From Candidatus Latescibacterota bacterium (GTDB lineage Bacteria > Latescibacterota > UBA2968 > UBA8231), in assembly GCA_965248265.1 (NCBI GenBank), contig CBDFJF010000001.1, forward strand, positions 896,001 to 960,000: a DNA stretch of 64,000 nt. Direction: 5' to 3'. The notes beneath the pieces are model-generated. The model was not told the DNA's origin, ran no database searches, and saw only the letters and a program-made list of their open reading frames with translations. The position numbers and the translations under genes were made by a program. Numbering within the stretch: the stretch's first letter is position 1; the number at the start of each line of letters is the position of its first letter. This document shows, piece by piece, positions 30,412 to 60,743 of this stretch.

Positions 30412-30427
30412 TGGCACAGAAGTTGTA
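30412..30427 (+). promoter_or_regulatory. Putative sigma-54 promoter (variant -12)
   Basis: TGGCAC-AGAAG-TTGTA, 23 bp upstream of ATG 30451. Confidence 0.6.
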
Positions 30428-38082: not shown

Positions 38083-40356
38083 CTACCTCTCCGCCAATTT
38101 CCCGTCGACAAGGTGAAACCTCGGCGCTTTTACTAGTTCTTCGAGGGTTCTCTGATGTTCGCCAACGCGCACGACTACGCCTGGAAAGGCCTTATCGGCC
38201 ATTGTGATCTCCGCCTTCTCAGCTGCTGAGCTGATTTTCTTATCCAGCTCCTGGCGCTGCCCCGCAAGTGTCTGATACGCTTGGGCGAGTTGTCCCAGCT
38301 GTTGCGCGCGATTGGCCAGCAATTTTTGCCGCGGACCGGTCGTAGCCTTGATCATATTTCGTATCTGTCCCAGATCGACTCGTGTCAGTCCGAACACCCT
38401 CAAGATTCGCAGGATATGCTCGTGACTGGTGTCAATGCCTTTTTTCAGTTTGTCGAGCTGCTGCGCTTGGCCGGGCTCCAATCCGACTACGAGGGTGGTC
38501 GTTGTTCCAGTTGGCGTGCCCGCGGTGTGACCTCTTATTCCCTCGCGCGCCAAAATGCGGCCCCCCATCACACTACCACCGCGGCCACCGCTGCCCCTCT
38601 CAACCGTCAGCCCGCCCCCTGTCTGAATCCTGGCGTGATAGGCAAAATTCCCGAGCGTGACATCCGTTCCAGCCAGAAGGGTGGCGTCCTGGATGAATTG
38701 AGCGCGCACATTTTGCTTTGCCATGATCTTCGTCTTCTGGCCGACGATCCCTCTACCGACGGTGACATCCCCCTCGGCGATAATCGTCGAACCAGGCTCT
38801 ACGGTTCCCGTAACGGTAACTGACCCCCCGGCTTTGACCGTAAATCCCTGCACTATTGAGCCGTCTATGCATACCTCGCCTCCGAAGCTGAGGTTTCCCG
38901 TGTTGAACGAGACATCCCCTGTCACCGCCAAGAGTTCCACGACCGAAATCTCACCGCTCTCCAATCTGGCTGCGCCGTCTATGTTGGCGATGAACTCTTC
39001 TACTTCACCCTCTCGCCCGACCCGGACATTATCCCCTGCCTCCAATGTCTGCTCTTCACCGTCCTCTGCGGCAAGACTCTTTGCCTTGAGATCTTTGCCC
39101 GGCGTACCCTTTGTCGCAGGCACCCGACGCGCCACCACCTGGTCAGCCCGAACATCGGGGGAGAAGTTCACATCGCGGAAGTCGATGGAACCGTCCTCCC
39201 TCTCGATGCCCGGTCGGCGTTCGAGGTCCACGAGGATCTCTATCTGGGCATCCCTCCCCCTTATGGGCTCTGTCCCCCTGACGACTTCGTACAACCCACA
39301 CTCGTGGCTGCCGTCACGGATTGAGGAAGTCAGGAGCCCGATTTCTTTATCTTGAATGTCACTGCGCACTTCTAGGTCTTGCATACACTGGCGGATCATT
39401 TCGGGTGTCAAGGGCTGCGGGTCCTCGTCGAGCACCAGCCAGGACAGGCACATGTATTTTTCATCGATCCACAGCGGCGACAAGACCGAGAGCCGGCCTT
39501 CCAAGAGACAGATGTATCCATAGCGTTCCGACTTGAATTCTCCGTCAGCCGAGAGCGCAACATTCAGCCCGGCCTCCAGCTTGCCTCCCTTCGCGTCGAA
39601 CGATGGAGATATCGGCCGACCAAACACGTCCTTCCCCGGTTTCCCTTCTTCGGCGCCCTTCATTCGCGCTAGCACTTCACCGGGACAAACCGCGAGTCCC
39701 CGGGTCTGCTTGACGCTGGCCTCATCCAGAGCTTCGGCGTGCAATACCTCATACAACTCCATGGACATGAGGCTGAGCGTTTCTGACGACATGCTGTGGC
39801 CCGGTTGACCCGGATGGAGATACTCGATCCGTTCAGCTTTTCCGGAGACGGGGCATTCACCCTCGGCCACCTTCAGCCACGGTGCCGGTGGACGAAAAGC
39901 TTTCGAGATGTCTAGAGCAGACGCGTCGACTCGTGTCAGCCCGTGTCGCTCGCAGATCTCCTCGAGTTTTCCCTCAGCAATTGCGTCGTCGGAAAGCTCA
40001 ATGAGATAGGCGCAGAGCCCGTCATGACTGAGCGCCAGCGTAATGCCCGACAACGAGACAGTGTAAAACGTCTGACCTTCATCTTCACACGAGCCTCGCG
40101 GCGCCTGAGCTTGCCTGAGACTGCTCACAGGCTGCCCAAAACCCGCGGCGATCCAACGCGCTTCAGGGTCGCTTTCACCGCGCAGCTCCGCAGAGGCCTC
40201 CGCCACCCGTTCTTCAACCGTGGTAGGCTCATCCCTCGTGACCGCCTCGACTTCCTGCAGAAAATCCTCCACCTCCTGCAGATCTGCAGCTACTGGTGCT
40301 TTGCCGTTTCCACGATGCTGGGCCGCTCTCTTCGTCGCTCGCGCCCGTCTGTTCAT
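38083..40356 (-). CDS. FapA (DUF342) family protein
   Basis: GSIDFRDVN, GDVSFNTGNLSFGGEV, AFPGVVV; paralog of 33142..34986. Confidence 0.87.
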   Translation of the reverse strand: MNRRARATKRAAQHRGNGKAPVAADLQEVEDFLQEVEAVTRDEPTTVEERVAEASAELRGESDPEARWIAAGFGQPVSSLRQAQAPRGSCEDEGQTFYTVSLSGITLALSHDGLCAYLIELSDDAIAEGKLEEICERHGLTRVDASALDISKAFRPPAPWLKVAEGECPVSGKAERIEYLHPGQPGHSMSSETLSLMSMELYEVLHAEALDEASVKQTRGLAVCPGEVLARMKGAEEGKPGKDVFGRPISPSFDAKGGKLEAGLNVALSADGEFKSERYGYICLLEGRLSVLSPLWIDEKYMCLSWLVLDEDPQPLTPEMIRQCMQDLEVRSDIQDKEIGLLTSSIRDGSHECGLYEVVRGTEPIRGRDAQIEILVDLERRPGIEREDGSIDFRDVNFSPDVRADQVVARRVPATKGTPGKDLKAKSLAAEDGEEQTLEAGDNVRVGREGEVEEFIANIDGAARLESGEISVVELLAVTGDVSFNTGNLSFGGEVCIDGSIVQGFTVKAGGSVTVTGTVEPGSTIIAEGDVTVGRGIVGQKTKIMAKQNVRAQFIQDATLLAGTDVTLGNFAYHARIQTGGGLTVERGSGGRGGSVMGGRILAREGIRGHTAGTPTGTTTTLVVGLEPGQAQQLDKLKKGIDTSHEHILRILRVFGLTRVDLGQIRNMIKATTGPRQKLLANRAQQLGQLAQAYQTLAGQRQELDKKISSAAEKAEITMADKAFPGVVVRVGEHQRTLEELVKAPRFHLVDGKLAER

Positions 40357-40372
40357 GATCTTGCCAGTCCTT

Positions 40373-41911
40373 TCATCTCAACGGCTCAACCACAGCCAAC
40401 TCCTCATTCTTCGGCTCCTTGCTCTGGCTGGGATAATTTGGTACGGACTCTATTTCAGAGCTAGTAGAGGACAACGTGAAGTAGAAGGTAGCTCCAGCAT
40501 CCGTCGCCCCGTGCGCCCAGATCCGGCCCCCGTGTCGCGTAACGATGCGATTCACCGTTGCCAGGCCGATCCCCGTCCCACTGAATTCTTCACCCGAATG
40601 CAGACGTTGGAACGGTTTGAACAGCTTACTCGCAAACTCCATATCGAAACCAGCGCCGTTGTCACGAACGAAGAATGCCTCCTCCTCCTGATGGTGGGTG
40701 ACGCCGAACTCGATGACAGCTCCGGCTTTTTTCTGGGTAAACTTCCATGCATTCCCGATCAGGTTGTTCAGAACGATCAACAGCAGGTTGGCATCAGCAT
40801 GGGCGTTGAGCGACGGAGCAATCGAGAACTCGAGTTGCCTGGGTGAATTCTCCTGGCGCAGTTTCTCCACAACCTTCTGGGCCATAGCCGACACGTCCAC
40901 GATTTCCCGATTCATCCCGGCCCGAGTCACGCGCGAAAGCTTGAGCAGGGAGTCGATGATGCGCTCCATGGTGCTCGCTGCGGTTATGATCTTGTTGAGG
41001 TATTCCTGCGCCTTTTCAGGTAGGTCGTCGACGCGCCTCACCACGAGCTGGGAGAGGCCGGCGATATGCCTGAGCGGTGCCCTGAGGTCGTGGGATGCAG
41101 AGTAGTTGAAGGCCTCCAGCTCCTGGTTTGCGGCCTGCAGAGCTGCAGTTCGTTCCGCAACCCGACGTTCCAGGTGTTCGTTGAGCCCCCTGACTTCCTC
41201 TTCCGCGTCGTCTCGCTCTCTTTCTCGCCTCTGGATCTCGTCAAGCATGACATTGAAACCATCGTAGAGCACGCCGATCTCGTTTTCTCCCACATGCGGA
41301 GCCCTCAGGTGATAGTCCCCTTCAGAAACCCTCCTCGCCAGCGCTGTCAACCTCAGAATAGGGTCCGATATAATCCTTTGAAGACCGACAGCCGCGAGCG
41401 CCGCCAGGAGACACAGTATGAGTGTCAGGATCCCCATCTCTGTGGCCAGATCTATGACTCGATCGTCCAGGCCCTGCGTAGAGGCACGAAGGTACAGAGC
41501 TCCGTACTGGTGACCATCCTGCTCTACGGGAATGATCACGTGCAGCTGATTGGTTGAAAACCAGGTGGCGGGGGTTAAATCGTCCGGCGGTGCGAATTCG
41601 ATGTCCTCCGTCCCAAAATACGAGAAAAGTTCGCGGTCCTCGAAAAGGGCCACCACCTCGATAGATGGCTCTACGGTAATTCTGGAGAGCGTACGGGTCG
41701 ATGCCTTCCGATCGCTGAACGCCAGATCGGTCACGCTGTAATCGGCCAGGATGCGTGCGGTCGTCTCCGTTTGATAGACCATGTCCTGTTGCAACGTTCG
41801 ATAAGTCCTAATGCCGGATATGCTCAAGCCTACCAATAGGAGGGGCACGGCAACGACGAGGATCATCCACAGCAGCTTGGCTCTGATGGAAACGTTCTTC
41901 AGTCGGTTCAT
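40373..41911 (-). CDS. Membrane HAMP histidine kinase
   Basis: Two TM helices, HAMP (PILRL..NEIGVLYDGFN), YSASHDLRAPLR, NLIGNAWKF, GTGIGLA. Confidence 0.92.
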   Translation of the reverse strand: MNRLKNVSIRAKLLWMILVVAVPLLLVGLSISGIRTYRTLQQDMVYQTETTARILADYSVTDLAFSDRKASTRTLSRITVEPSIEVVALFEDRELFSYFGTEDIEFAPPDDLTPATWFSTNQLHVIIPVEQDGHQYGALYLRASTQGLDDRVIDLATEMGILTLILCLLAALAAVGLQRIISDPILRLTALARRVSEGDYHLRAPHVGENEIGVLYDGFNVMLDEIQRRERERDDAEEEVRGLNEHLERRVAERTAALQAANQELEAFNYSASHDLRAPLRHIAGLSQLVVRRVDDLPEKAQEYLNKIITAASTMERIIDSLLKLSRVTRAGMNREIVDVSAMAQKVVEKLRQENSPRQLEFSIAPSLNAHADANLLLIVLNNLIGNAWKFTQKKAGAVIEFGVTHHQEEEAFFVRDNGAGFDMEFASKLFKPFQRLHSGEEFSGTGIGLATVNRIVTRHGGRIWAHGATDAGATFYFTLSSTSSEIESVPNYPSQSKEPKNEELAVVEPLR

Positions 41912-42483
41912 GGGCCGTCTCCCGTGACTACGAGCCGCGCCCGTGGGAGTAAGCGCCGAGAGATCTCCAGTCCAACGTCCTCCAGCTCGTTTCGATTGAT
42001 CTCGAAACGGAGCAGCTCTGCGTCGAGGAAAAAGTTGATCATCACCCCGCGCTCGCCGAAGCCCGGAGTGTCCCCGATTGTCAACACAGGTCGCCCCTCA
42101 GTCGTCGCCAAAATTAGAGGCAGCTCATTATCCTCCGAAGCTGAGATGAAAAGAACCTGACAGTTGCCGATCTCCACCGCACTGCCTATGTACCGAACCC
42201 TGACCGGCCGGCCTTGGATAGGCGTGATCTGAGCCAGTTCGTCCAGTCTGCTGCCGAACGAGTGTGCTCCAATCACCTCGATCATGAAGGGGGATGATTC
42301 GTCGCCCTCCCCCTCGGGCCAGGTGATGAAGCGCGTAAGCCGCTCGATAAAAGTGACCTCGAGAGTCAACCGATCGGTCTGGGCGTAGATCGGATTCAGC
42401 ATTACCAGCAGTACTAAGCCGGCGGTAACTCGCGCAGCTCCAAGGACGTTCGTCCGAACTCCACTTTTCATCCGTGGCACCAT
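41908..42483 (-). CDS. yfiR: YfiR (DUF4154) family periplasmic regulator
   Basis: RFITWP, CQVLFIS, PVLTIGD, GVMINF, RFEIN, GLEISRRLL; lies between a TonB receptor and a HAMP kinase. Confidence 0.85.
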   Translation of the reverse strand: MVPRMKSGVRTNVLGAARVTAGLVLLVMLNPIYAQTDRLTLEVTFIERLTRFITWPEGEGDESSPFMIEVIGAHSFGSRLDELAQITPIQGRPVRVRYIGSAVEIGNCQVLFISASEDNELPLILATTEGRPVLTIGDTPGFGERGVMINFFLDAELLRFEINRNELEDVGLEISRRLLPRARLVVTGDGP

Positions 42484-43760
42484 TACGCGGGCAGCCGGAC
42501 CCTTCCCTTAGAGTCCAACAGATATCATTCCATACACAGCTCGCCCGGAATGATGCGGAATTGTATTTACAACCTTCCGGTTGAACTCAGGGAAATCAAT
42601 ATCTTCATCCAACAGATTATCGGCATATAGAGATAGTGTCGTTTCAGGCATGGTTGGCTTACCTAATAACTTGGGAATATCAAAACTGATATTGGCCGTT
42701 AGAAGATCATAGGAATCCGCCGCGGGATTTACTTCCTGCGTACCGAGATTGAATTTCTCGACTTTGCTTGCCTCTCCAAAGTGGCTATTAAATAGACTCA
42801 CAGTGTATCCTTTATCCGCTTCGTATGAAGCTCCCACTTTTGCCATCAAGTTGGGACTGAACGTGACATCCTTTTGCCCTTTGTCATCCTCGTTAATCTG
42901 ATAACTGATGGAACCTAACAGGCGGAGCTCTTTGGCAAACTGCGCATTACCTTCGAATTCAAGACCCTGAAAATCCACTTCTCCCGCATTGACATACGTA
43001 TTAACTCCGTCGACAAAAGTCCTAGCATGACTATCTGAGAGCTTACTGCTGTAGTAGGTAAATGCCGCGAAATGTCGTGAAGTATGGTAGAAAATCTGGG
43101 CGTCAAAAGTTGCAATTCTTTCAGGTTGTAACTTGCTGTTCCCTTTCAGAAAAGGGGCGTCGATAAATGATTCAGCGCCAAACGCTGCACGGTATGCCTC
43201 ACCGTAAAGAACTTTGGCGCCCCACGCCTTATGGAAGTTGGTAACGGCCCCTATACGTGGCGAGATATCGGAAGCTACGCCTTCGGGCTTATTCCATTGA
43301 AAACCACCGACCAGTTTTAACCAGTCCAAAGGCGTGTAATTCCCTTGCAAGTAAATACTCTCACGCCACATGTCATAATTACTGACCCGACCCACACCCA
43401 ATTTCCCATGAAGCTGGTCAAAAACTCCACCAGCGACAATATCTACATTATCCGATATTTGACCATGAGTCGTTAGCTCAATCAAATATCCACTTGAGTC
43501 AAACTCCCTTGTGATTCCGCCAATGGGGAAATCGAAACTGTGGCCGTTGTAGGTAGAATTGATAGCGACATCCCAATTTCCGGTAACAGGATGGGTATAA
43601 CCAACATCAATGAACTGCCGCTTGAGACCCAAAATTCCGCCTGGAAATAAAAATGCGCTTCCTATATTTCGATTAGACGTGTTCGAGAGGATACTATTTA
43701 CTGTGAGACCTTTATAGGATGCTTGAAATACGGCCTGTGTACCGGACTCCTCATTTTTAA

Positions 43761-45203
43761 GGCTCGTCAGTAGAATTCGTGGGTAAATTGTGGCTCGGGT
43801 AGATGGCCAAGCTGATGGAATGAAGCGATTTGGAGTGCATTGAAGGTGCGGAATCCGAATGCTTTTCTCACCGTCAGATTCCATTTCAGGTTCAAGCCCT
43901 CGACGATGCCGTTGTTGAACTGCTTCTTGGCCCTGAACCAATTGAGGATGAGCTCTCGATGACGACGGAGCATCCTGGCGATGTCTTTCATCGGTTCGAT
44001 CTTGCTCCTCATCGTGCGGAAACACCAGCGGTCGAGGAATTTGCCGGCCCAGGCGGGGTAGGTATAGTTCCAGAAGCGCTGGAAGTCTTCCTTCAGTAGA
44101 TAGGCTTTGACGGTACGCAGGTTCATCTTCAAGAGCTCGGACAGCTTCAAGCCTTGGGTGTCGCTGAGGTTCTCCTTGCGCTTGAGGAAGCACCAGCGGC
44201 TCTTGCACAGGACGGGATCTTGGCCCTCTTCTTTGAGTCTGCGGGCCTCTTCGGCACGGACTTTGTCGAGGGCCTTGCTGAAGTGCTGCATGATGTGAAA
44301 GCGGTCGAGAACGTGTACCGCCGCCGGGAGCCGCTGGTCGATGACGGTGAGGTAGGCTTTCCAGATATCACTGCAGATGACGGCAATCTGGCCGAGGAAG
44401 CTTCTCGGCTCCTGCTCGCCGGCCGCATCTTGCTTGCGCTGGTGCTCTTGCTCCAGCTCAGTAAAGCCGTCGTCCAGGGTCTTCATCGTCCGCCCTTCGC
44501 CCATCCATAACAGGCGGCGGCGGTGGGTGTCGATCTGGTACAGCAAGGTCAGATAATGATGGCCTTTCCGATACTGGATTTCATCCACGCCGAGGGCGGT
44601 GACCTGGTCGAGACCGCGATGAGCGATGCCATATTCCACCACGTACTGGACGGACTGGTAGATCTTGTCCCAACTGGTGCGGAAGGAGCGGGCTACCTCC
44701 GTCCACGACAGCTTCTTGGCCCATTGCGCTAGGAAGCACCGGTAGATGTCGGTCAGGTGGTGCTTACCCGTGCTCCAGGGGACCTTCTCGACGACCACCC
44801 GGCCGCAGGCGTTGCAGGCCACCCGACGCATGGGATACACCAGAAAGACCGGGAACCCCCAGAGCGGAACGAACTCGAACCGCCGTGCATCGGTGGCCGT
44901 GTCATAGGTGGGTGACAACTGACCGCAGCCGCTGCACTCCGCCCTGGAGTTCTTTCGGGGCCGGAGGCTCACCATAATCCTTCCGTGTTCGTCAAAATGA
45001 CTGCCCTCAAACACAAAACGCTTGAACTTCGTGCATCGGTTCAGTACTGTGATCAGGCGCATCATTCCCTCCAAGGTAGGTCGGGATCGGTCTTGGTCGA
45101 TTGTCCCAACATACCGGGAATGATGCGCCTGTGCTATCCTCGGTCTCCTCTATGCCCGTGGGCGCAGCCGGGCTCTTTCACCCACAGATTCTCCGGAGGA
45201 GCC
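43761..45203 (-). mobile_element. ISL3-family insertion sequence
   Basis: Imperfect IRs GGCTCGTCAGTAGAATTCGTGGGT / GGCTCCTCCGGAGAATCTGTGGGT; 8-bp target duplication ATTTTTAA at 43753..43760 and 45204..45211. Confidence 0.93.
43767..45065 (-). CDS. ISL3 transposase
   Basis: Zn finger CSGC/CNAC, LGVDE, CSDIWKAY, LDRFHI, NGIVEGLN, RKAFGFR. Confidence 0.93.
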   Translation of the reverse strand: MMRLITVLNRCTKFKRFVFEGSHFDEHGRIMVSLRPRKNSRAECSGCGQLSPTYDTATDARRFEFVPLWGFPVFLVYPMRRVACNACGRVVVEKVPWSTGKHHLTDIYRCFLAQWAKKLSWTEVARSFRTSWDKIYQSVQYVVEYGIAHRGLDQVTALGVDEIQYRKGHHYLTLLYQIDTHRRRLLWMGEGRTMKTLDDGFTELEQEHQRKQDAAGEQEPRSFLGQIAVICSDIWKAYLTVIDQRLPAAVHVLDRFHIMQHFSKALDKVRAEEARRLKEEGQDPVLCKSRWCFLKRKENLSDTQGLKLSELLKMNLRTVKAYLLKEDFQRFWNYTYPAWAGKFLDRWCFRTMRSKIEPMKDIARMLRRHRELILNWFRAKKQFNNGIVEGLNLKWNLTVRKAFGFRTFNALQIASFHQLGHLPEPQFTHEFY

Positions 45204-45961
45204 ATTTTTAATAATGTCATGTACCCCAGCTTCATCCGTTGCCTCAAAATCCCAGCCCTGGCTGTCCAGATAGTCTATGCCCCCATAAAAGCTGAAATCT
45301 CCATGGTGCTTGCCACCAGATACGGTTATCTCTTTCGTATCAAATGAACCGTACCGGGTTGAGATTACCACATCTATATCCTTATTTGCCTTTTTGGTAA
45401 TAACATTGATGACACCTGCAAACGCATTCGTGCCGTAAAGGACAGAGCCAGGACCTCGAATTATCTCTAATCTCTCGATCGTTTCTAGAGGAAATGACCT
45501 GTAGATGTCGCCGTTAATTCCTCCGCCATGCGCTTCTCGGATAGGTCTGCCATTGAGCAATAGGAGTATGTGATTATCGGCGTGGGTTTGTGCACCGGCT
45601 CTGATAGCCGTTACATTGTGAGGAAAGACATTGGACCCTATTACTTGGGTATTGGTTACTCTATCGAGTACGTCTCTAAGATTTCGAGCCCCAAACCGTT
45701 TTATTTCATCTTGTGTGACAGTACTGACAATCCCCGGAGCATGAGAAATTCTCTCAGCTTTCTTCGATGCCGTGGTCACTTTCAGATTAAATAGGTCGTC
45801 CAGGGAAAGTTGGACCAGCTCTCCCAGCGAAGACTCCTCATCCTCGTTTCTGTCCTCATAAGCCGAGAGATGGTTGTTACATAAAAGCAGTATAAAACAG
45901 CAAATGGATAGAATTTGGGATGCCGCAAACTTCTGGTTTGTTTCCCTGGTACGTCTGGCCA

Positions 45962-46948: not shown

Positions 46949-46969
46949 ATGAATTCTCTCCTCGTTATC

Positions 46970-49303
46970 TCATTGCGAGTTGTTTGAAGACGCCTCAGCC
47001 GTTTGCTTCTCGATCGGCAGCTCGATTACAAATCGTGCGCCGGTGGGCTGGGACTCCAGTCTGAGATGGCCGCCATGATCCTGCATAATGCCATTACACA
47101 CACTCAATCCCAATCCGGAACCCGAGCCGATTTCTTTGGTTGTGAAAAACGGTTCGAACACCCGTTCTCGAATTTGCTCAGGCACTCCTGGCCCGCTGTC
47201 TTCCACGGCCAGTACGACCTTGTCAGCGCAAACGCACGTCCGCACGGTGATGCGTTTCTCTTTCTCTACACTCTCCCGCAGTGCATCTTGGCTGTTCTGC
47301 ACCAGGTTCAAAACCACCTGCTGAATCTGACCCGCGTGGACGTGTAAACGCGGCAGATCCTCATCGAAGCTTTCGGTCAACTCAATATGATTCAGCTGTA
47401 ACAGCCGTCGCATCAGGGCAAGCGCTTCGCGCACGACCTCATTGAGATCCATGGCCTGCTTTTCCAACTTTTGACGCCGCGCGAAAGTCAATAGACGCCT
47501 GGTGATCTCGGCCGCCCGAGATCCTGCCTGATAGATTTGGTCAATATCCTGCTGCATCCCTTCTTCCAGTGAATCGTCCAGCAGGAGCTGGCAAAGTCCT
47601 GTGATTGTGGTAAGCGGGTTGTTGATCTCGTGAGCAATACCCGCAGCCAACTGGTCGATCATCTCTACCTTTTGAGCCTGGCGCAGCTGCTGTTCCTTAA
47701 GCGCCAGAGCGTTCAGATCGTCCAGGCGCCGAAAGCCAACGGATAGGACGTCTGTCAGCTCCTGCATGAATGCGAGGTCCCGGTCCGTGAACGCTTCGGG
47801 CTCAGGGCTGTTGGCCGACAGTGTCCCATGAGAGAAAGGAACATCGAGCACCGACCGCACTTCAGGGTACCAAGCCTCTGCGACATCCCCATACTCGTGG
47901 TACGGATCCTCTTTGGCGAGATCGCGACGATACGCTGGCACGTCGGTTCGCCAAATCTGCACGACGACGTTCCTTGCCGTACTGTCATCTCTCATCCGCC
48001 AATTCCCTTCCCTGGTCATCTCGTGGGAGCTAACCGTGGGTGGATCGCTGGATTCGTCGATCACATTGATCGCGTAGTGTTGGGGCAGCACCGGCAGTGC
48101 ATCTAAGCCCTCCCTGACAGCCATCAGCACCTGCACGATCTCCTTGGCGTGGGTCATTTTCCACACTTCCTCTCGTACCCGGTGCAGCATTCGCTCCTCG
48201 GCTTGTCGCCGCCTGCGTTCGGTAATGTCACGGACCATGGCGATCATGCAGGCCCTTCCGTCTCTGTCCATGGTCGAAGCTGAAATCTCGGCGGGTAACT
48301 CCCTGCCCGACTTCGTTCGGCAAGTGCATTCGTCCGTCCATCCTGTCCCCCGTTCAAACACGGACTGTGCGAAAGCTCGAAATTTGGACATCTCATGCGG
48401 GTGAATGGCGGATATCGGGATGGACAGCAAGTCCTCTTGAGCATATTCCAGCAGGTCGCACGCACGGGAATTGGCATCGAGGATTCGATCCAGTTCCGGA
48501 TCGATGACAAAGATCGCATCATTGGAGTGGTCGAAGATTTTGCGGAAACGTTCCTCACTCTCCTGCAGCACCGCTTCTGCCCGCTTGCGCTCCGTGATAT
48601 CGCGAAGCGATGCGAGATAAGCCGCTTCACCATTCCATTCGGTCTCCACCACACGCATTTCGGCCACCGCTGTTTCACCGTCTCTGCGTAGGACATCGAG
48701 TTCTGTTGTTGCCTCCCCCACTGGAAAGCCGAATACTTCGTCCAGGAGTTGCTCTTTACTGCGAGACAAAAGAGCCTCCGCTGCTGGATTTACGAAACGC
48801 ACGATGCCGTTCCGGTCCATGATGATCACGCCATCCGAATTTCTCTCTATGATGTGGCGAAGCCGGGCTTCGCTGAATTGCACCTCATTCATGTGTTGGA
48901 CCAATTCCAACCGCAACCGCTGTCGTTCAATCGCGTAGCGAATGGCCCGTACCAACACACCGTTGTCTGCTTGACCCTTAATCAGATAATCCTGTGCGCC
49001 TCTCTGCATAGCTCTGCTGGCGAGCGCTTCGTCGTCTAGGCCTGTGAGTACTACAATGGGTATTTCTGGTATTTGACTGTGTAATCGGCTAAACGTCTCA
49101 AGGCCCTTGCTGTCCGGCAGCGAGAGATCCAATAGTGCCACATCAAAGTGCCTTTGGCCGAGACGTTTCAGCGCTTCACTGAGCCGTTCTACGTGCGTCA
49201 ATTGAAACGTAGACGGCGTTGACTCCGTCAGTGTCTCACGCATCAAGTCAGCATCGTCGGGATTGTCTTCAACCAGCAGGACTTCGACGGGAATCTTGTC
49301 CAT
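46970..49303 (-). CDS. Hybrid histidine kinase (receiver-PAS-PAS-GAF-like-HK)
   Basis: VLLVEDN, LLDLSLPD, two PAS domains, AHEINNP, QVVLNLVQNS, GSGLGL. Confidence 0.9.
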   Translation of the reverse strand: MDKIPVEVLLVEDNPDDADLMRETLTESTPSTFQLTHVERLSEALKRLGQRHFDVALLDLSLPDSKGLETFSRLHSQIPEIPIVVLTGLDDEALASRAMQRGAQDYLIKGQADNGVLVRAIRYAIERQRLRLELVQHMNEVQFSEARLRHIIERNSDGVIIMDRNGIVRFVNPAAEALLSRSKEQLLDEVFGFPVGEATTELDVLRRDGETAVAEMRVVETEWNGEAAYLASLRDITERKRAEAVLQESEERFRKIFDHSNDAIFVIDPELDRILDANSRACDLLEYAQEDLLSIPISAIHPHEMSKFRAFAQSVFERGTGWTDECTCRTKSGRELPAEISASTMDRDGRACMIAMVRDITERRRRQAEERMLHRVREEVWKMTHAKEIVQVLMAVREGLDALPVLPQHYAINVIDESSDPPTVSSHEMTREGNWRMRDDSTARNVVVQIWRTDVPAYRRDLAKEDPYHEYGDVAEAWYPEVRSVLDVPFSHGTLSANSPEPEAFTDRDLAFMQELTDVLSVGFRRLDDLNALALKEQQLRQAQKVEMIDQLAAGIAHEINNPLTTITGLCQLLLDDSLEEGMQQDIDQIYQAGSRAAEITRRLLTFARRQKLEKQAMDLNEVVREALALMRRLLQLNHIELTESFDEDLPRLHVHAGQIQQVVLNLVQNSQDALRESVEKEKRITVRTCVCADKVVLAVEDSGPGVPEQIRERVFEPFFTTKEIGSGSGLGLSVCNGIMQDHGGHLRLESQPTGARFVIELPIEKQTAEASSNNSQ

Positions 49304-49358
49304 TGGCACCTCGCCTTCGGAACAGTCCGATATTGCAAGACCGCAGTTTCTGACTTCC

Positions 49359-50891
49359 TTACTCACCTACGCCTTGTGCCTCTTGGAAAAGGCCCCTGAA
49401 ACGCTCAGTTTCACCGGGGGCGGCATAGCTCGGACTACCCGACAGGATCCCGGTGACATTGGAGAAGGCTCGCCCGATATGCATGCCGTCCCCATCGATG
49501 CTGAATTCGCGGATTTCCTTATCGTGTAGGGATCCTCGCATCTTGAGGACGGTAAGGCCCCGGCGCATTTCCCCGTACATCTCCACGTAGCGCAGCAGGA
49601 TGATCGAGTCAGTGATCGTGGAAATGTGGGCTTCCGTGACCGACGTACCGCCCATCAACGACTCCGTTGTGGACGTGAAGAGACCGGCCGCTTCCTTATG
49701 CTTGATAAAGGCCGTGAGTGCTATAACGAATTCACGGAATCCTTTTCTCGTGGAAACACGCTCCAGGGCGGACAGACTGTCCACGGCGATCCGGTTGGGT
49801 TGGAATTCATCGATGATCTCCTTTATGCGAATGAGATGATCTTCAAGGCCGGCGGCCTCCGGGTACTCGCACACCACCTTCAGTCTCTCTTCCCGTTCCA
49901 TTTGCTCGAAATCCACTCCCCAACCGGTAGCGTTGCGAAAGAGTTGCTCGCGGCTCTCCTCGAAGGCAAAGAGCAGGCAGCGCTCGTCAGTAAGCGCACC
50001 TCCGTCCATAAACTCAGTCACCATGAGAGTCTTACCGGTCCCGGTCGCCCCTGACACCAGGATGACGGAATCGCGGAAGAAGCCGCCACCGCACATCTCG
50101 TCTAGCTCTGCACTGCCCGAGGTGATGCGGATAGCCGAGGACTTCTGTTTCAGTTCAATGGCGGACAGCGGGATCGCGATGATGCCTTTGTCTGGCATGA
50201 CCGTAAAAGGGAATTCGCCCTTCTGATGCTGGGTCCCGCGAAATTTGAGGATCTCCAAGGTTCTGCGGCGTTTCTCATCCTCCAGCACGTTGCGCAGGAT
50301 GACGACGTTGTCGGCGACAAACTCCTCGATGCCGTAGCGGGCGATATCGCCGTATTCCTGGGTTCGCTCCGCCGTCATGACGGCCGTGACCCGCATCTCC
50401 CGCAATGCTGCGGCCACCCGAAACAGTTCACTGCGCACGGTGCTGGTATCGGAGAATTTGGTAAAGATGGCGCCCAGCGAATCCAGAGACACCCGTTGCG
50501 CACCTACCTTCTGAATGGCGTATTCGACACGCGTCAGGAGGGCACCCAGATCGTATTTTCCCGCTTCGGTGACGTCATCTTCTGGCCGCGGAGATGCATC
50601 GACGAAGATCCATTTGCCTTCGCTTTCCCATTTCTGGATATCCCAACCAAAGCCCAACATGTTCTTGCGGATATCGCGGGGCGACTCCTCGAAGGTGATA
50701 AAGACCCCCGGCTGATCTGTCGCCCTAATCCCCTCGGCCAGGAACTGCACCGCAAAGACCGTCTTGGCGCTGCCAGCGGTGCCGGCGACCAGTGTAGTGC
50801 GTTCCCTCGGCAGGCCACCTTCAGAGATCAGGTCAAAACCCTGGATTCCCGTTTCGAGTTTTTCAATCAAACGCTGCTCTTTCATGTCCAT
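49359..50891 (-). CDS. kaiC: Circadian clock ATPase/kinase KaiC
   Basis: Two RecA-like domains (GTAGSAKT, GATGTGKT), FEES twice, phosphosite region HISTITD, C-terminal GILSGSP. Confidence 0.96.
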   Translation of the reverse strand: MDMKEQRLIEKLETGIQGFDLISEGGLPRERTTLVAGTAGSAKTVFAVQFLAEGIRATDQPGVFITFEESPRDIRKNMLGFGWDIQKWESEGKWIFVDASPRPEDDVTEAGKYDLGALLTRVEYAIQKVGAQRVSLDSLGAIFTKFSDTSTVRSELFRVAAALREMRVTAVMTAERTQEYGDIARYGIEEFVADNVVILRNVLEDEKRRRTLEILKFRGTQHQKGEFPFTVMPDKGIIAIPLSAIELKQKSSAIRITSGSAELDEMCGGGFFRDSVILVSGATGTGKTLMVTEFMDGGALTDERCLLFAFEESREQLFRNATGWGVDFEQMEREERLKVVCEYPEAAGLEDHLIRIKEIIDEFQPNRIAVDSLSALERVSTRKGFREFVIALTAFIKHKEAAGLFTSTTESLMGGTSVTEAHISTITDSIILLRYVEMYGEMRRGLTVLKMRGSLHDKEIREFSIDGDGMHIGRAFSNVTGILSGSPSYAAPGETERFRGLFQEAQGVGE

Positions 50892-50892
50892 C

Positions 50893-51198
50893 TCATTCAT
50901 CTCCTTGATTAGCGTCGGGATACACATCCAGCCCCAACAGGACCTTCTCGGTATCGGACAGATCGCCGATGACGCGTCGAATGGGCGAAGGCAGCTCTTT
51001 GATCAGGGCCGGCGTCGCCAGGATCTTCTCATCCTCAGCCAATTGCGGTCTTTCCAGGATATCGATGACCCTTATCTCGTAGCGGCCTCCCAGCTCCTCC
51101 CTGCAGATCCGCTGCAGGTTGGCAATGGCGCGCTCCGATTTCGGCGTCTGTCCGGTGATGTATAGTTTCAGTAGCACTTCATCCATGATCATCCTCAC
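50893..51198 (-). CDS. kaiB: Circadian clock protein KaiB
   Basis: LKLYITGQTPKSERAIANL, IDILERPQLAEDEKILATP, PIRRVIGDLS. Confidence 0.96.
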   Translation of the reverse strand: MRMIMDEVLLKLYITGQTPKSERAIANLQRICREELGGRYEIRVIDILERPQLAEDEKILATPALIKELPSPIRRVIGDLSDTEKVLLGLDVYPDANQGDE

Positions 51199-52049
51199 TC
51201 TGTATCGGTGGTCATTCCGACAGAACGGTTGCGGTAGAACGAGACCAGATGGCCCATTAGCTCAAAAGCCATCAACCGCCCCTCTTCGATATAGGCCTGG
51301 GCTTTTTGCGGCCCTGTTTCGCTGCTTTTTTTCTGCAGGGCAGTGCTATGCACCTCCACTACGCTGCGCGGACCGGCTTTCAAGAGACCTATCTGTTCGG
51401 CCAGGCAGTAAAGACCTTCCGAAGTATTGTGCTCTACTCTGTAGGCTTGTTGCTCCAGCGCCCGATCCAGGAGCGCTTCGTAGCGCTCAACCAGTTTCGT
51501 GAACGTATCCGGTATACTCTCCTGGAGGGACGTGGTGCCATAAAGCCGAGCCGTAACAGCCGCCCCGTTAGAACCGGAAGCCCGCTCAAATGAGCGCATC
51601 TCGCGCTCGTGACGTTCCCGCTGCCGAGTCATCTCCAGTTCCGCTTGCAGCCGGTGGCGCTCAATCGCATAGCGGATCGCCCGCACCAAAACGCTATTAG
51701 CAATCTGCCCCTTCACCAGATAATCCTGTGCCCCTTCATGAACAGCTCTGATGGCCAATCTTTCATCGTCGAGACCTGTAAGCACCACAACGGGCACGTC
51801 GCGCGCTTCAGCGTGTATCCTGGCAAGCGTGGCCAATCCCTGGCTGTCGGGCAGAGAGAGGTCCAGTAACACCACATCAAATCCATTTTCCCGCAGGCAT
51901 CGCACCGCCTCATCCAGTCGCTCAACCTGCGTCAGCTGGAACGGAACAGAGGCAGTGGCTGCCTCTGTCAACACCTCGCGCAGCAGGTCTGCGTCACTGG
52001 GGTTGTCCTCCACCAGCAGGACATGGATGGGTCGGGATTCCCTTTTCAT
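51195..52049 (-). CDS. Receiver-domain protein with KaiA-like C-terminus (KaiA3 type)
   Basis: Receiver VLLVEDN/LLDLSLPD/DYLVKG; C-terminal VVEVHSTAL...EEGRLMAFELMGHLVSFYR resembles the KaiA C-terminal helix; overlaps the kaiB start. Confidence 0.8.
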   Translation of the reverse strand: MKRESRPIHVLLVEDNPSDADLLREVLTEAATASVPFQLTQVERLDEAVRCLRENGFDVVLLDLSLPDSQGLATLARIHAEARDVPVVVLTGLDDERLAIRAVHEGAQDYLVKGQIANSVLVRAIRYAIERHRLQAELEMTRQRERHEREMRSFERASGSNGAAVTARLYGTTSLQESIPDTFTKLVERYEALLDRALEQQAYRVEHNTSEGLYCLAEQIGLLKAGPRSVVEVHSTALQKKSSETGPQKAQAYIEEGRLMAFELMGHLVSFYRNRSVGMTTDTE

Positions 52050-52496
52050 TCAGTTTGTGGGCAACTTAACGACGGTGAACCAGAAGTCCTCGATGGATTT
52101 GACCACCTTGATGAACTGGTCAAAGTCCACCGGCTTCGTGATGTAGCAGTTGGCGTGCAGCCTATACACTTGGAGAACATCCTCTTCCGCCTCCGAGGTG
52201 GTCAGGATGACCGTGGGAATCAGCTGTAGGGATTCGTCCGCCTTTATTTCTGCCAGTACCTCTCGGCCGTCCTTCTTGGGCAGGTTCAAATCGAGTAGGA
52301 TCAGATCTGGACGTGGTACATCGCCGTTCGGACCCTCGCGCCGCAGAAAAGTCAGCGCTTCCACACCATCCTCTGCAACGTGAAGATGGTTGTGTATCTT
52401 GGCATCCTTGAGCGCTTCTATGGTCAACTCTACGTCGTTCGAGTTATCTTCGACCATCAGGATCTCGATGGGTCTGCATACCTCTGCAAAGCTCAT
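52050..52496 (-). CDS. Single-domain response regulator, Rcp1-like
   Basis: ILMVEDN, PDLILLDLNLPKKDG, ANCYITKPVD, FW motif. Confidence 0.92.
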   Translation of the reverse strand: MSFAEVCRPIEILMVEDNSNDVELTIEALKDAKIHNHLHVAEDGVEALTFLRREGPNGDVPRPDLILLDLNLPKKDGREVLAEIKADESLQLIPTVILTTSEAEEDVLQVYRLHANCYITKPVDFDQFIKVVKSIEDFWFTVVKLPTN

Positions 52497-53320
52497 GATG
52501 CGGTAACTCCTTTGTCCGGGATGGTGAAGTAGAACGTCGACCCAACCTGCGGTACTGATTCGACCCAAATCCGGCCGCCGTGTCGTTCTATAATTTTTCT
52601 GCATGTCGCCAGGCCAACACCGGTGCCTTCGTATTCCTTTTGAGTGTGCAGTCGCTGAAAAATGAGAAAGATGCGCTCGCTATGTTCCCGATCTATCCCG
52701 ATGCCGTTGTCTTGGACGAAGAATACCCACTCAGTATCCTCGCGACTCGCCCCTACATGTATTTTTGGCTGGTGATTACCGCAGAATTTGATGGCATTCC
52801 CGATCAGGTTCTGGAATAACTGCACTAGCTGTACATCATCGGCCAGAACAGTTGGCAGTACGCCATGTGTTACCAAGGCGCCGCTCTCTTCAATGGCGAC
52901 TTGCAGGTTGTCAATCCCCTGGCTTAGGGCCTCAGAACATTTAGTCGGCTCAAAGGCGTTACCCCGCGTGCCGACCCGCGAATACGTTAGCAATTCGGCA
53001 ATGAGCCTTTTCATCCTCGCTGCCCCATCTACTGTACGGGCGATAAATCTGCGGGCATCCGCATCGAGTCGGTCTTTGTAACGTCGATCGAGCAGCTGCA
53101 AATAACTCGTTATTACACGCAGCGGCTCTTGCAGGTCGTGTGAAGCGACAGAGGCAAACTGTTCCAGCTCGTCGTTGGAGCGCTCCAACTCTGCCAGGAG
53201 CTGTTCCAGCTCTATAGATTGGTCGATCACTGTTTGCTCGTGCACTTCGAGCAGTTGTTCGAGGGTAGCCACCTGGGACCCAAGCTGCTCAACTGTTTCA
53301 TTTCGGCTGTTGTCGTCCAC
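52493..53320 (-). CDS. Cytoplasmic histidine kinase (Cph1-type kinase module) lacking its own sensor domain
   Basis: ASHDLQEPLR, QLFQNLIGNAIKF, FQRLH, GTGVGLA; only a ~50-aa helical N-terminus. Confidence 0.92.
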   Translation of the reverse strand: MDDNSRNETVEQLGSQVATLEQLLEVHEQTVIDQSIELEQLLAELERSNDELEQFASVASHDLQEPLRVITSYLQLLDRRYKDRLDADARRFIARTVDGAARMKRLIAELLTYSRVGTRGNAFEPTKCSEALSQGIDNLQVAIEESGALVTHGVLPTVLADDVQLVQLFQNLIGNAIKFCGNHQPKIHVGASREDTEWVFFVQDNGIGIDREHSERIFLIFQRLHTQKEYEGTGVGLATCRKIIERHGGRIWVESVPQVGSTFYFTIPDKGVTAS

Positions 53321-53325
53321 AACGA

Positions 53326-54078
53326 TTACTTCACCTCAACAGAAGAGTCGCATCGGGTGAATACCGATCCTCCAACGAAGGGCAACACTGCCACCTTCGC
53401 ACTCAGTGCCAGGATCCTGAACATATCAGCAGTCTTGCGCGGGATGTGGACCTTGGAGAACAGGATTACCGCGAAGAGATCCCCTGAAGGAAGCATGCCA
53501 CCGAACCCCAGCGCCGATTGAATGCCGAATGGAATCACGAATTCCGCTTGGGCTGGGATGTACGGACTGCCCATTGCTTCGGGCACGTAGAACACGTTGT
53601 AGGATCTCTGATCCAGATCCACGATTATCGTTCGATCCGGCTGCAGTACTGCGTTCACGTCCAGTCCGAATTGATGAACTAATTGAGAGATCATCGGAAA
53701 TTGTGCGACAATGTCCTCGCTCGGGAGAGGAATCGCCTTATGACCGATCGAGTTCGCTCTGGAATTCCACTCGGACCTCTCACCGGCAGTCCCCAGCAGT
53801 ATCAGACACCTCATCGCAGGCGATTGGGCTCGGTTACCCACTAACTGGCAGGCGAATTCGCTAAGATCTCTGTCCAGATCCTGGAAAGGGTGCGTTTTGT
53901 AGAAACGGACGAGGACACAGGATCTGGCGCCGGTCTCCTGGTCGACGATGTGCTCTTGGAGATAGCGAACAATCCTTCCAGCCACCGTCTCCATGCTTTC
54001 AGCGCCGGCACCCATGCTGCGCAATGCCGAGGAGCATTTGCTCATGTCGCTCAGGGTAAAGTTTGTGAGATCGTACAT
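53326..54078 (-). CDS. Uncharacterised stand-alone GAF-like sensor protein
   Basis: Homologous to the N-terminus of 16298..17812 (LVRF, CLxLxGTAG, GHxxxPL, YIPxQ, LGFGGMLP); 5 bp upstream of the kinase. Confidence 0.75.
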   Translation of the reverse strand: MYDLTNFTLSDMSKCSSALRSMGAGAESMETVAGRIVRYLQEHIVDQETGARSCVLVRFYKTHPFQDLDRDLSEFACQLVGNRAQSPAMRCLILLGTAGERSEWNSRANSIGHKAIPLPSEDIVAQFPMISQLVHQFGLDVNAVLQPDRTIIVDLDQRSYNVFYVPEAMGSPYIPAQAEFVIPFGIQSALGFGGMLPSGDLFAVILFSKVHIPRKTADMFRILALSAKVAVLPFVGGSVFTRCDSSVEVK

Positions 54079-54150
54079 GGAACTATTCTCTCATCCCTCT
54101 ACCCGAAAATGGTTCTTCTCCATCACGGCTCCAGATACAGTCGGTTTTCT

Positions 54151-54417
54151 TTATGGTGCGTTTTGCACCAATTTCTTCAGAAACTGCGACCAGGCAACAC
54201 ATTGTACCCCTTCTATCTCAAGCTGACGTAGGAGCTCAGTACCGTGCGTGTCGGCGAAACCGACATCGGACAGATCCAGAACCAAGGACGACCCGATCTC
54301 TTCTTGGTGTTCTGAGCACGTTCTCCGAAGTAGCCGCACCCACTGACCTACGAGCTCTCCTTCCAATTTGAGGACAGTCTCTCCGTGTCGGTCTACAAGC
54401 TTGGTAATTCTGAGCAT
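54151..54417 (-). CDS. STAS-like protein
   Basis: MLRIT..VLKLEGELVGQWV..LDLSDVGFADTHG; paralog of 29239..29535. Confidence 0.8.
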   Translation of the reverse strand: MLRITKLVDRHGETVLKLEGELVGQWVRLLRRTCSEHQEEIGSSLVLDLSDVGFADTHGTELLRQLEIEGVQCVAWSQFLKKLVQNAP

Positions 54418-54450
54418 CGATTTTTTTTCTCTGGTCTGGAAAGGGGATCT

Positions 54451-54466
54451 TGCAATCTCCGTGCCA
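54451..54466 (-). promoter_or_regulatory. Sigma-54 promoter of the kai-containing operon
   Basis: TGGCAC-GGAGA-TTGCA matches TGGCAC-N5-TTGC; 33 bp upstream of ATG 54417. Confidence 0.85.
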
Positions 54467-54508
54467 CAACAATAAAAGCCACTCAAGGCTCCCGCCTAAG
54501 TGGCTTCA

Positions 54509-54521
54509 CATCAACTGCTTG
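54509..54521 (+). promoter_or_regulatory. IHF-like site
   Basis: CATCAACTGCTTG vs WATCAANNNNTTR (one mismatch), between promoter and upstream palindromes. Confidence 0.45.
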
Positions 54522-54569
54522 TTCAAAAAATGAGGTGACTATTTATGTGTGAGTTCGCATGTTTATGGC

Positions 54570-54616
54570 TCCCAATATGTTGGGAATTCCCAATCGGAAT
54601 CCTTAATATTTTGGGA
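54570..54616. promoter_or_regulatory. Palindromic upstream activator sites
   Basis: TCCCAA-TATG-TTGGGA (54570) and CCTTAA-TATT-TTGGGA (54601), ~105-150 bp upstream of the sigma-54 promoter. Confidence 0.65.
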
Positions 54617-54633
54617 AGTTGGGAAGTGAGTCT

Positions 54634-60727: not shown

Positions 60728-60743
60728 TGCAAGGTCGATGCCA
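60728..60743 (-). promoter_or_regulatory. Putative sigma-54 promoter
   Basis: TGGCAT-CGACC-TTGCA on the minus strand. Confidence 0.75.

Follow-up and report, generated by a model that had tools for sequence, protein, structure and literature searches.

KaiA3, KaiB and KaiC genes within a two-component gene string behind a sigma-54-type promoter in a Candidatus Latescibacterota bacterium

Is a set of kai genes found outside the cyanobacteria a timer on its own, or part of a signalling pathway that supplies its input and reads its output? This question is raised by a locus in a 64,000-nucleotide (nt) stretch of DNA from a Candidatus Latescibacterota bacterium (GenBank assembly GCA_965248265.1, contig CBDFJF010000001.1, positions 896,001 to 960,000 of the forward strand), here called the window and numbered from its first letter. 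Open reading frame (ORF) calls together with Pfam and NCBIfam searches reveal 13 co-directional genes and one transposase ORF at 38083-54417 on the minus strand. Their order is STAS protein, the 250-residue protein U250, the histidine kinase HK1, the response regulator RR1, a KaiA3-type protein, KaiB, KaiC, a REC-PAS-PAS kinase (REC, receiver domain), a REC-GAF protein, a TonB receptor, a YfiR/DUF4154 protein, the kinase HK3 and FapA. A preliminary description of this DNA had listed the same content and order on this strand, and the ORFs and domains match it. Its count of 13 packed same-strand genes also stands, but the ORFs number 14, and it had overlooked that the TonB receptor gene is split by an ISL3 insertion. 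We consider it fairly probable that the locus encodes a KaiA3-KaiB3-KaiC3-type phosphorylation timer embedded in a two-component phosphorelay. The nine genes that bear on this most directly are listed here in the direction of transcription.

54151-54417, minus strand: STAS-domain protein, 88 amino acids (aa) from the ATG at 54417, whereas a longer ORF with a TTG start would begin upstream of the promoter; Pfam STAS E 4.4e-5, 23.6 bits against a cut-off of 22.6
53326-54078, minus strand: U250, 250 aa; GAF-like predicted fold, no Pfam or NCBIfam match
52493-53320, minus strand: HK1, sensor-less histidine kinase, 275 aa; HisKA and HATPase_c
52050-52496, minus strand: RR1, Rcp1/RcpA-like single-domain response regulator, 148 aa; its ATG at 52496 overlaps the HK1 stop (ATGA)
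51195-52049, minus strand: KaiA3-type protein, 284 aa; phospho-acceptor receiver and putatively KaiA-like four-helix C-terminal domain
50893-51198, minus strand: KaiB, 101 aa; Pfam KaiB E 1.2e-29, 102.3 bits against a cut-off of 27
49359-50927, minus strand (ORF): double-domain KaiC; likely start ATG at 50891, 1 nt after the kaiB stop
46970-49366, minus strand: hybrid kinase, 798 aa; REC-PAS-PAS-HisKA-HATPase (Pfam)
45962-46948, minus strand: REC-GAF response regulator, 328 aa; REC E 2e-26, GAF E 4e-4, the latter below the cut-off

The KaiA3, KaiB and KaiC proteins

The occurrence of a KaiA3/KaiB/KaiC set in a non-cyanobacterial setting, as first described for this DNA, is upheld by scores above NCBIfam equivalog cut-offs for both KaiC (NF006799, 740 vs 408 bits; TIGR02655, 665 vs 546) and KaiB (NF006798, 112.9 vs 110; TIGR02654 stays below at 106.6 vs 145.3). 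According to the available text of PMC11372060, non-cyanobacterial KaiA3BC has already been published. KaiB matches solved KaiB chains with E 6e-29, and KaiC matches solved structures with 746 bits (8ZN5, a reconstructed ancestral KaiC-beta), 613 bits (Synechococcus KaiC) and 308 bits (Rhodobacter KaiC2). Catalytic EE pairs are present in both KaiC domains (FEES), the Walker A motif of the CII domain reads GATGTGKT, the segment VTEAHISTITD (T-x4-IST) aligns with the phosphosite motif of solved KaiC, and the A-loop (LSGSP) and tail are in place. The Walker A motif of the CI domain (residues 49-56; 50759-50782) is GTAGSAKT instead of GxxxxGKT, with Ala replacing the Gly before Lys. Since three of the seven other KaiC proteins compared share this type, while a fourth has Ser at that position, the odd motif appears to be a clade trait. 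The idea that it marks a dead KaiC was rejected because orthologues share GTAGSAKT.

The gene in front of kaiB, which it overlaps by 4 nt, encodes a member of the KaiA3 family. It shares 51% identity, across 96% of its length, with the product of the gene preceding kaiB-kaiC in a Roseiflexus metagenome-assembled genome, and Roseiflexus is among the genera with KaiA3 orthologues (PMC11372060). KaiA3 has been described as a receiver::KaiA chimera related to KaiA and RsbU-N (Koebler et al. 2024, PMC11372060). The receiver of the window protein is recognised by Pfam (Response_reg, E 2.1e-20), and its residues D63 and K113 are invariant in 45 relatives. The predicted structure, with a predicted local distance difference test (pLDDT) value of 89.5, shows, after the receiver and a long helix, a C-terminal domain of four confidently modelled helices (180-278).

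Fold searches with the whole model (Foldseek against pdb, and a wider search) returned receiver domains only and were uninformative on the C-terminal domain. Its likeness to KaiA was therefore tested by sequence, using as reference the canonical short KaiA of a Fischerella locus, verified by Pfam (E 1.1e-47). In hhalign the profile of the KaiA3 family aligned to canonical KaiA with E 0.0091 over 88 columns, pairing the EIH segment and the C-terminal ...LCELYRRS helix of KaiA with the conserved EIH and ...LVSYYRN of the family. When a hidden Markov model of the C-terminal domain was run against 8218 ORFs, canonical KaiA ranked first after six orthologues (E 0.042). Pfam searches of 45 family members touched RsbU_N in five and KaiA in one (E 0.052); the window protein gave no Pfam KaiA match, and its C-terminal 145 residues alone gave nothing at E<=10.

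Two-component neighbours and their recurrence in other loci

The genes around kaiA3BC suggest which proteins may communicate with KaiA3. HK1 has only about 50 residues ahead of its HisKA domain. RR1, which at 148 aa has the length of its relatives, has as closest solved relative an unnamed receiver (5te9), followed by RcpA (E 1.6e-42) and Rcp1 (E 5e-40); the earlier label of an Rcp1-like regulator is justified since these two are its best named solved relatives. Behind kaiC, the receiver of the hybrid kinase is 65% identical to that of KaiA3, against 31-36% to the other receivers of the window, which suggests that one kinase serves both.

A possible sensor for HK1 is encoded directly upstream, where the U250 gene stops 5 nt before HK1. 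The preliminary description called U250 a GAF-like sensor, and the predicted fold (pLDDT 87.9, predicted template-modelling score 0.88) agrees, albeit through weak matches: the best Foldseek hits are bilin-binding GAF/phytochrome domains with TM 0.39-0.45 and E from 2.5e-4, and a protein atlas points to GAF clusters only, at the level of a lead. A Pfam scan detected neither PAS_2 nor PHY, the hallmark domains of phytochromes. The family is large: 2691 relatives at E<=0.001, about 60% identical, occur in Planctomycetes, Nitrospirae, Armatimonadetes and a Methanoregula archaeon. Its members are about 241 aa long, and Cys91, His113, Trp104 and Arg107 are invariant in 35 sequences. From 80 metagenomic loci (L086-L165), 33 downstream partners and eight fused forms were scanned. 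Most of the downstream partners are histidine kinases, either bare or linked to PAS, PAS-GGDEF-EAL proteins or PAS/GAF fragments, with one GAF-GGDEF and one PAS-GAF-HD protein and three small proteins that gave no informative match. Two are short sensor-less kinases like HK1 (L086, L095). In the fusions U250 is joined to kinases, to adenylate/guanylate cyclase or to SpoIIE-type (PP2C) phosphatases, and among 19 ORFs just upstream of U250 relatives Pfam identified one receiver and three MHYT proteins, leaving 15 without a match. In view of this range of partners and fusions, U250 would be a detachable sensor module of general use, for which HK1 most simply supplies the kinase half. U250 is thus the probable sensor partner of HK1, and its family, which looks like an undescribed general sensor domain, is large, carries no annotation and merits characterization in its own right.

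Eight other KaiA3-KaiB-KaiC loci were available for comparison. Two are from the phylum of the window itself and six are from named genomes: Anaerolineaceae, two Chloroflexota including Roseiflexus, Ca. Magnetobacterium casense, Granulosicoccus and Vicinamibacterales. Seven of the eight encode a kinase with an HK1-like core on the upstream side of kaiA3, four have an RR1-like gene between kinase and kaiA3, and in four a REC-PAS-kinase directly follows kaiC. The latter architecture is confirmed by Pfam in two of these four loci, and a fifth locus has such a gene before kaiA3. Because these genes recur in other phyla, the dedicated input and output arms proposed in the preliminary description are reasonable for the upstream kinase (with or without the regulator) and the downstream REC-PAS-kinase; for STAS, U250 and the distal genes, which the eight other clusters lack, this reading is weaker. 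The upstream kinase, the Rcp1-like regulator and the REC-PAS-kinase are accordingly good candidates for KaiA3 input and output. A link between U250 and Kai was also considered in Ca. Magnetobacterium casense and rejected as too loose, the U250-GAF-GAF-PAS-HD protein lying 2.9 kb beyond the Kai string and past hisG.

A genome of the window's phylum shows how the core can vary. On L167 (genome G061, contig 158; 7809-12923, minus strand) the order is kinase-RR1-KaiA3'-KaiC'-KaiA3-KaiB-KaiC-REC-PAS-kinase, which amounts to a duplicated KaiA3-KaiC pair, the first pair being without a KaiB of its own.

The kinase and the regulator also extend well beyond the Kai loci. The KaiA3 receiver domain served as seed for 80 loci (L006-L085), only six of which held full-length KaiA3 relatives, the other 74 serving for the count of kinases, regulators and receivers; all six proteins that carry the KaiA3 C-terminal domain precede kaiB-kaiC. 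HK1-core kinases were found in 61 of the 80, RR1-like genes in 60, and in 50 the two are adjacent, the kinase first, ahead of a KaiA3-type receiver. The kinase cores upstream of RR1-like genes are 45-67% identical to that of HK1, and elsewhere HK1-core kinases carry very varied sensors. These loci outline a widespread cassette of an HK1-core sensor kinase, an Rcp1-like regulator and a protein that opens with a KaiA3-type receiver, mostly a REC-PAS-kinase, with hosts among cyanobacteria, Chloroflexota, Nitrospirota, Verrucomicrobiota and others. Within this kinase-regulator-receiver cassette, KaiA3 appears to be one variant of the output.

Promoter region and distal genes

A second question is how the string is transcribed. 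The region in front of the STAS gene contains the following features.

54451-54466, minus strand: sigma-54 -24/-12 element TGGCACGGAGATTGCA; perfect match, intergenic, 34 nt before the STAS ATG
54475-54507, minus strand: terminator-like hairpin with a 13-pair stem and T-rich tail, predicted to end the activator transcript just before the promoter
54569-54625, minus strand: candidate activator-binding repeats (TTCCCAA three times, TTGGGAA, TTGGGAG) in three palindromes, about 105-160 base pairs (bp) upstream of the -24 element
54634-56649, minus strand: sigma-54 enhancer-binding protein, 671 aa; PAS-GAF-AAA+(Sigma54_activat)-HTH_8, directly upstream and co-directional

The consensus TGGCAC-N5-TTGCA site, the upstream palindromes and the adjacent PAS-GAF activator that had been reported are all present in the sequence. 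A perfect match to the consensus occurs once in the 64-kb window, compared to 0.04 expected from shuffled sequence, with four of 100 shuffles reaching one match. Genome-wide (7.3 Mb) there are 14 perfect matches, against three for a reversed control pattern, and the genome has one copy of rpoN. Four of the eight perfect TTCCCAA/TTGGGAA heptamers in the window are concentrated in 54569-54625, and a near-consensus site of the IHF type lies between the repeats and the promoter. Pfam supports each domain of the activator (Sigma54_activat E 2.5e-72, GAF 4.6e-15, PAS_9 1.8e-14, HTH_8 1.2e-6). Among NCBIfam models it is matched best by NifA and FhlA, in each case below the cut-off, and it reaches the cut-off of no named equivalog. 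The hairpin is the strongest in the scan of the region, a scan which overall did not rise above shuffles (16 found, 16.8 expected), and sigma-70-like matches in the region show no excess either (9 vs 9.5 in shuffles). The promoter is as good as sigma-54 promoters get in silico, and we infer sigma-54 control from it; that the activator would govern transcription of the whole string is suggested by the window locus. The statement that cyanobacteria generally lack sigma-54, also made in the preliminary description, agrees with the table of a 2009 review, which in its available part gives no RpoN for six cyanobacteria.

After the starts of RR1 and KaiC were re-set by ribosome-site context, all junctions in the string range from -8 to +72 nt. 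Four are 4-nt overlaps of the ATGA type, including that between the REC-GAF and TonB receptor genes, and kaiC overlaps the hybrid kinase gene by 8 nt. The largest gap, 72 nt, follows the STAS gene, and every later junction is 24 nt or less. FapA is followed by a convergent gene on the plus strand. The tight packing is compatible with a single transcript, and the genes may thus form one operon.

Two further motifs with one mismatch to the -24/-12 consensus occur in the window. TGGCACAGAAGTTGTA at 30412-30427 (plus strand) is located 24 nt upstream of an ATG that has a good ribosome site and heads a string of a PAS-HisKA_2 kinase, a REC protein and a second FapA at 30451-34986 (plus strand). This string may be a second sigma-54-driven, FapA-ended signalling operon. 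TGGCATCGACCTTGCA at 60728-60743 (minus strand) lies upstream of a group of zinc-dehydrogenase, DUF5069 and MarR genes, about 400 nt from the nearest annotated start. Between the second FapA string and the end of the Kai string, the plus strand carries IS630-like transposase fragments (an HTH ORF at 35107-35643 and a DDE_3 ORF at 35802-36167), then a PAS-only ORF (36270-36860) and, 9 nt further, a receiver-less sigma-54 activator (36870-37991). A stop or a frameshift may have divided a single gene into these last two ORFs.

The distal part of the string is formed by four genes and an insertion sequence (IS).

42508-45965, minus strand: TonB-dependent receptor gene, split into a Plug ORF (45150-45965) and a barrel ORF (42508-44208)
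43761-45203, minus strand: ISL3-family insertion sequence, 1,443 bp; transposase ORF 43767-45074 on the same strand as the receptor, DDE_Tnp_ISL3 E 7e-69
41908-42483, minus strand: YfiR/DUF4154-like periplasmic protein, 191 aa; Pfam DUF4154 E 2.9e-34, 118.7 bits against a cut-off of 24.9
40373-41911, minus strand: HK3, CHASE8-HAMP-HisKA-HATPase kinase, 512 aa; core 39% identical to that of HK1
38083-40356, minus strand: FapA/DUF342-family protein, 757 aa, the last gene; Pfam FapA E 3.3e-51, FapA_N E 2.5e-39

The best NCBIfam models are NF053591 for the YfiR-like protein (103.1 vs a cut-off of 125) and NF053592, a 'YfiR-like protein-associated' kinase, for HK3 (139.7 vs 194). With scores below the NCBI thresholds the two proteins do not count as members of these families. 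The first reading of this DNA saw here a FapA-terminated output cascade of the timer. The four genes make better sense as an envelope-sensing module in its own right, of a type already recognised and placed beside the Kai genes; any link between the two would derive from the window locus. FapA-ended signalling strings seem to be a habit of this genome and not a Kai feature, given the kinase-REC-FapA string at 30451-34986 on the other strand. A Gemmatimonadota locus (L083) has the same TonB-receptor/YfiR/CHASE8-kinase trio, followed immediately by an RR1 and a REC-kinase, and it is conceivable that HK3 converges on the same receivers as HK1.

The G+C content of the receptor gene is 0.47-0.48, against 0.55-0.59 around it. 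The element within it has imperfect terminal inverted repeats starting GGCTC and is flanked by an 8-bp duplication, ATTTTTAA, at 43753-43760 and 45204-45211; ISL3 elements make target duplications of this length. A second, 100% identical copy on contig 2 of the same genome (L166, 504-1946) served to fix the ends. Removal in silico of the element and one copy of the duplication restores a single open frame of 668 codons. A search for sequencing runs of this DNA listed four, all from one sample of one study and none of RNA. Contigs from these runs break off some 22-24 nt into the element on either side, confirming both junctions in three runs and only the right one in the fourth; hence the insertion is both real and recent, and the receptor is inactivated. 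Five joints that seemed to skip the site, with sides of 21-23 letters, were left out of account. Among the contigs listed, none bridged a site free of the IS, although contigs cannot show rare variants and this is no proof of fixation. Contigs of three runs also connect the right end of the element back to the left one across a few bases, at roughly the depth of the chromosome. Joins of this kind are compatible with a circular form of the element or a copy in tandem, and it may therefore be active.

Possible circuits and their relation to known systems

In the mechanism that we propose, the PAS-GAF activator would bind the TTCCCAA/TTGGGAA repeats and, on its signal, drive RpoN-polymerase from the -24/-12 site. 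Because transcription would be driven by the activator, the whole apparatus would be made only on demand. On the input side, conserved neighbourhood and paralogy suggest that U250 could be the detached sensor of HK1, and that HK1 could phosphorylate RR1 as well as the receivers of KaiA3 and the hybrid kinase. For the core we extrapolate from the homologous, tested system of Synechocystis: the KaiA-like domain would promote autophosphorylation of KaiC on the conserved Ser/Thr pair, and KaiB would oppose this. The hybrid kinase and the REC-GAF protein, again judged from neighbourhood and paralogy, could carry the state of KaiC onward. The envelope-sensing module would be coupled translationally to the end of the Kai genes while standing outside the conserved Kai neighbourhood, its receptor having recently been knocked out by ISL3. 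A more ambitious version makes the locus a self-contained input-timer-output circuit: a cofactor-binding U250, possibly sensitive to light or redox state, would gate HK1, which acts through KaiA3 to set or reset KaiC; the hybrid kinase, through its twin receiver, would pick up the same signal for the output, and the sigma-54 activator would decide whether the timer exists at all. We regard this version as unlikely. If true, it would represent an inducible, phosphorelay-entrained Kai timer in a non-phototroph and the first defined cognate kinase pathway for KaiA3.

Several observations weigh against an embedded timer of this design. The KaiA-likeness of the C-terminal domain of KaiA3 is statistically weak (E 0.009 and 0.042; a Pfam KaiA match in one of 45 relatives and not in the window protein), yet the pieces agree and fit the KaiA3 description in the available text of PMC11372060. 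The odd CI Walker A motif of this KaiC clade may affect the CI ATPase. The STAS protein is barely above its Pfam cut-off and falls below that of TIGR00377, and BLAST found no STAS homologue in any locus compared; any role of this protein would be deduced from the window locus. In none of the 80 metagenomic U250 loci was kaiB or kaiC found, so that U250 would be a general sensor and not a Kai-specific part. The preliminary description had proposed a synteny search for the sensor-kinase-regulator triplet with kaiA3BC and a -24/-12 motif. The kinase (7/8) and the regulator (4/8) indeed recur, but a U250 inside the cluster does not (0/8), nor does a -24/-12 motif scoring 10 of 11 upstream on the cluster strand (0/8), nor do STAS, an adjacent sigma-54 activator, the TonB receptor, YfiR or FapA (each 0/8). 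As the other loci lack them, the links of sigma-54, activator, STAS, U250 and distal module to Kai come from one genome, and the sigma-54 motif, activator, STAS, in-cluster sensor and distal block look like local additions. KaiA3-like genes are present in three of 168 genomes of the phylum and, at full length, in none of the 40 nearest relatives, a distribution which indicates that the Kai cluster is a sporadic, probably acquired, accessory. Finally, the IS may exert polar effects on the last three genes.

Three other explanations should be considered. The locus could be a mosaic, in which a nine-gene Kai/two-component unit and a four-gene TonB/YfiR/kinase/FapA unit came to lie head to tail by accident and share at most a transcript, with no signalling link. 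The lack of the distal genes in all eight other Kai loci, their match to a self-contained NCBIfam pair of YfiR-like protein and kinase, the drop in G+C in the receptor gene and the nearby kinase-REC-FapA string that has no kai genes would be consistent with this. However, the REC-GAF stop and the TonB receptor start overlap by 4 nt with no terminator-like site between, HK3, whose core resembles that of HK1, is not accompanied in the string by a receiver of its own, and a similar trio precedes an RR1 and REC-kinase pair in L083. On balance we give the mosaic slightly less than an even chance. In a second explanation there is no clock: the Kai proteins may act as a stress or metabolic switch that does not oscillate, or as an hourglass, roles that have been proposed for the KaiBC proteins of several non-cyanobacteria, and be made conditional by sigma-54. 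An inducible sigma-54 promoter would fit such a conditional device better than a free-running clock. In the available text of PMC11372060 and PMC12081879, on the other hand, KaiA3-KaiB3-KaiC3 of Synechocystis and Cyanothece oscillate in vitro, and the window KaiC retains all motifs examined and has a KaiA3 partner, so that we see the two outcomes as evenly balanced.

The remaining explanation concerns transcription only. The -24/-12 match could serve no more than the first gene or genes, or be due to chance, with kaiA3BC expressed from internal promoters of the sigma-70 type. The absence of the motif from the other Kai loci, the 72-nt gap after the STAS gene and the occurrence of one perfect match in four of 100 shuffles of 64 kb agree with such an arrangement. 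It nevertheless seems rather improbable: the site is intergenic, correctly oriented, 34 nt before the first ATG and right after an activator gene and repeats, the consensus is enriched genome-wide (14 vs 3), sigma-70-like matches are no more frequent than in shuffles (9 vs 9.5) and all later junctions are 24 nt or less.

Individual parts of the locus resemble well-known systems. NifA/FhlA-type sigma-54 activators share the PAS-GAF-AAA+-HTH_8 architecture, repeats about 105-160 bp upstream and the -24/-12 consensus, whereas the window activator scores below all named equivalog cut-offs and would have a signalling operon as target. TonB receptor/YfiR-like/associated-kinase trios (NF053591, NF053592) have the same gene order, with Plug and barrel, DUF4154 and a CHASE8-HAMP kinase; the window trio differs in being below both cut-offs, followed by FapA, coupled to the Kai string and disrupted in its receptor by an IS. 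LvrA/LvrB of Leptospira (NF047465, NF047466) likewise form a pair in which a kinase feeds a receiver-kinase that has no DNA-binding domain. LvrA is the best NCBIfam model for the HK1 and HK3 cores and LvrB the second-best for the REC-kinase, with all window scores far below the model cut-offs, and we know of no Kai module in Lvr. The Cph1-Rcp1 and CphA-RcpA pairs come to mind because they include the best named solved relatives of RR1 and because bilin-binding GAF domains are the best fold matches of U250. In the window, by contrast, PAS_2 and PHY are lacking, the sensor is a separate protein and the fold match is weak (TM ~0.45).

Among Kai systems, the KaiB-KaiC hourglass of Rhodobacter sphaeroides (8DBA, 8FWI) is also a non-cyanobacterial KaiBC timer. 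The window KaiC is more distant from it (308 bits) than from cyanobacterial-type KaiC (613-746 bits) and has a KaiA-type partner. The closest likeness is to KaiA3-KaiB3-KaiC3 of Synechocystis, where according to the available text of PMC11372060 a protein with a receiver and a KaiA-like domain, its phospho-acceptor Asp conserved, is also encoded directly before kaiB and kaiC, and KaiC is of the cyanobacterial type that lacks the long C-terminal extension of KaiC2. The window genes differ from this system by their position within a 13-gene string that includes a split sensor kinase, an Rcp1-like regulator, a hybrid kinase, a REC-GAF protein and a sigma-54 promoter. A full-text literature search, judged on titles and the starts of abstracts, found no sigma-54 or RpoN control of kai genes, in line with the earlier remark that no such Kai system had been described. 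With its sigma-54 promoter and PAS-GAF activator, the locus would be a first example of a Kai system made on demand. New in this locus are also the proposed split U250/HK1 first input, the twin receivers and the coupling to an envelope module. The available text of PMC11372060 states the cognate kinase, inputs and outputs of KaiA3B3C3 to be unknown. The recurrence beside kaiA3BC, in at least five phyla, of the kinase core, the Rcp1-like regulator and the REC-PAS-kinase with its near-twin receiver offers concrete candidate proteins for phosphotransfer.

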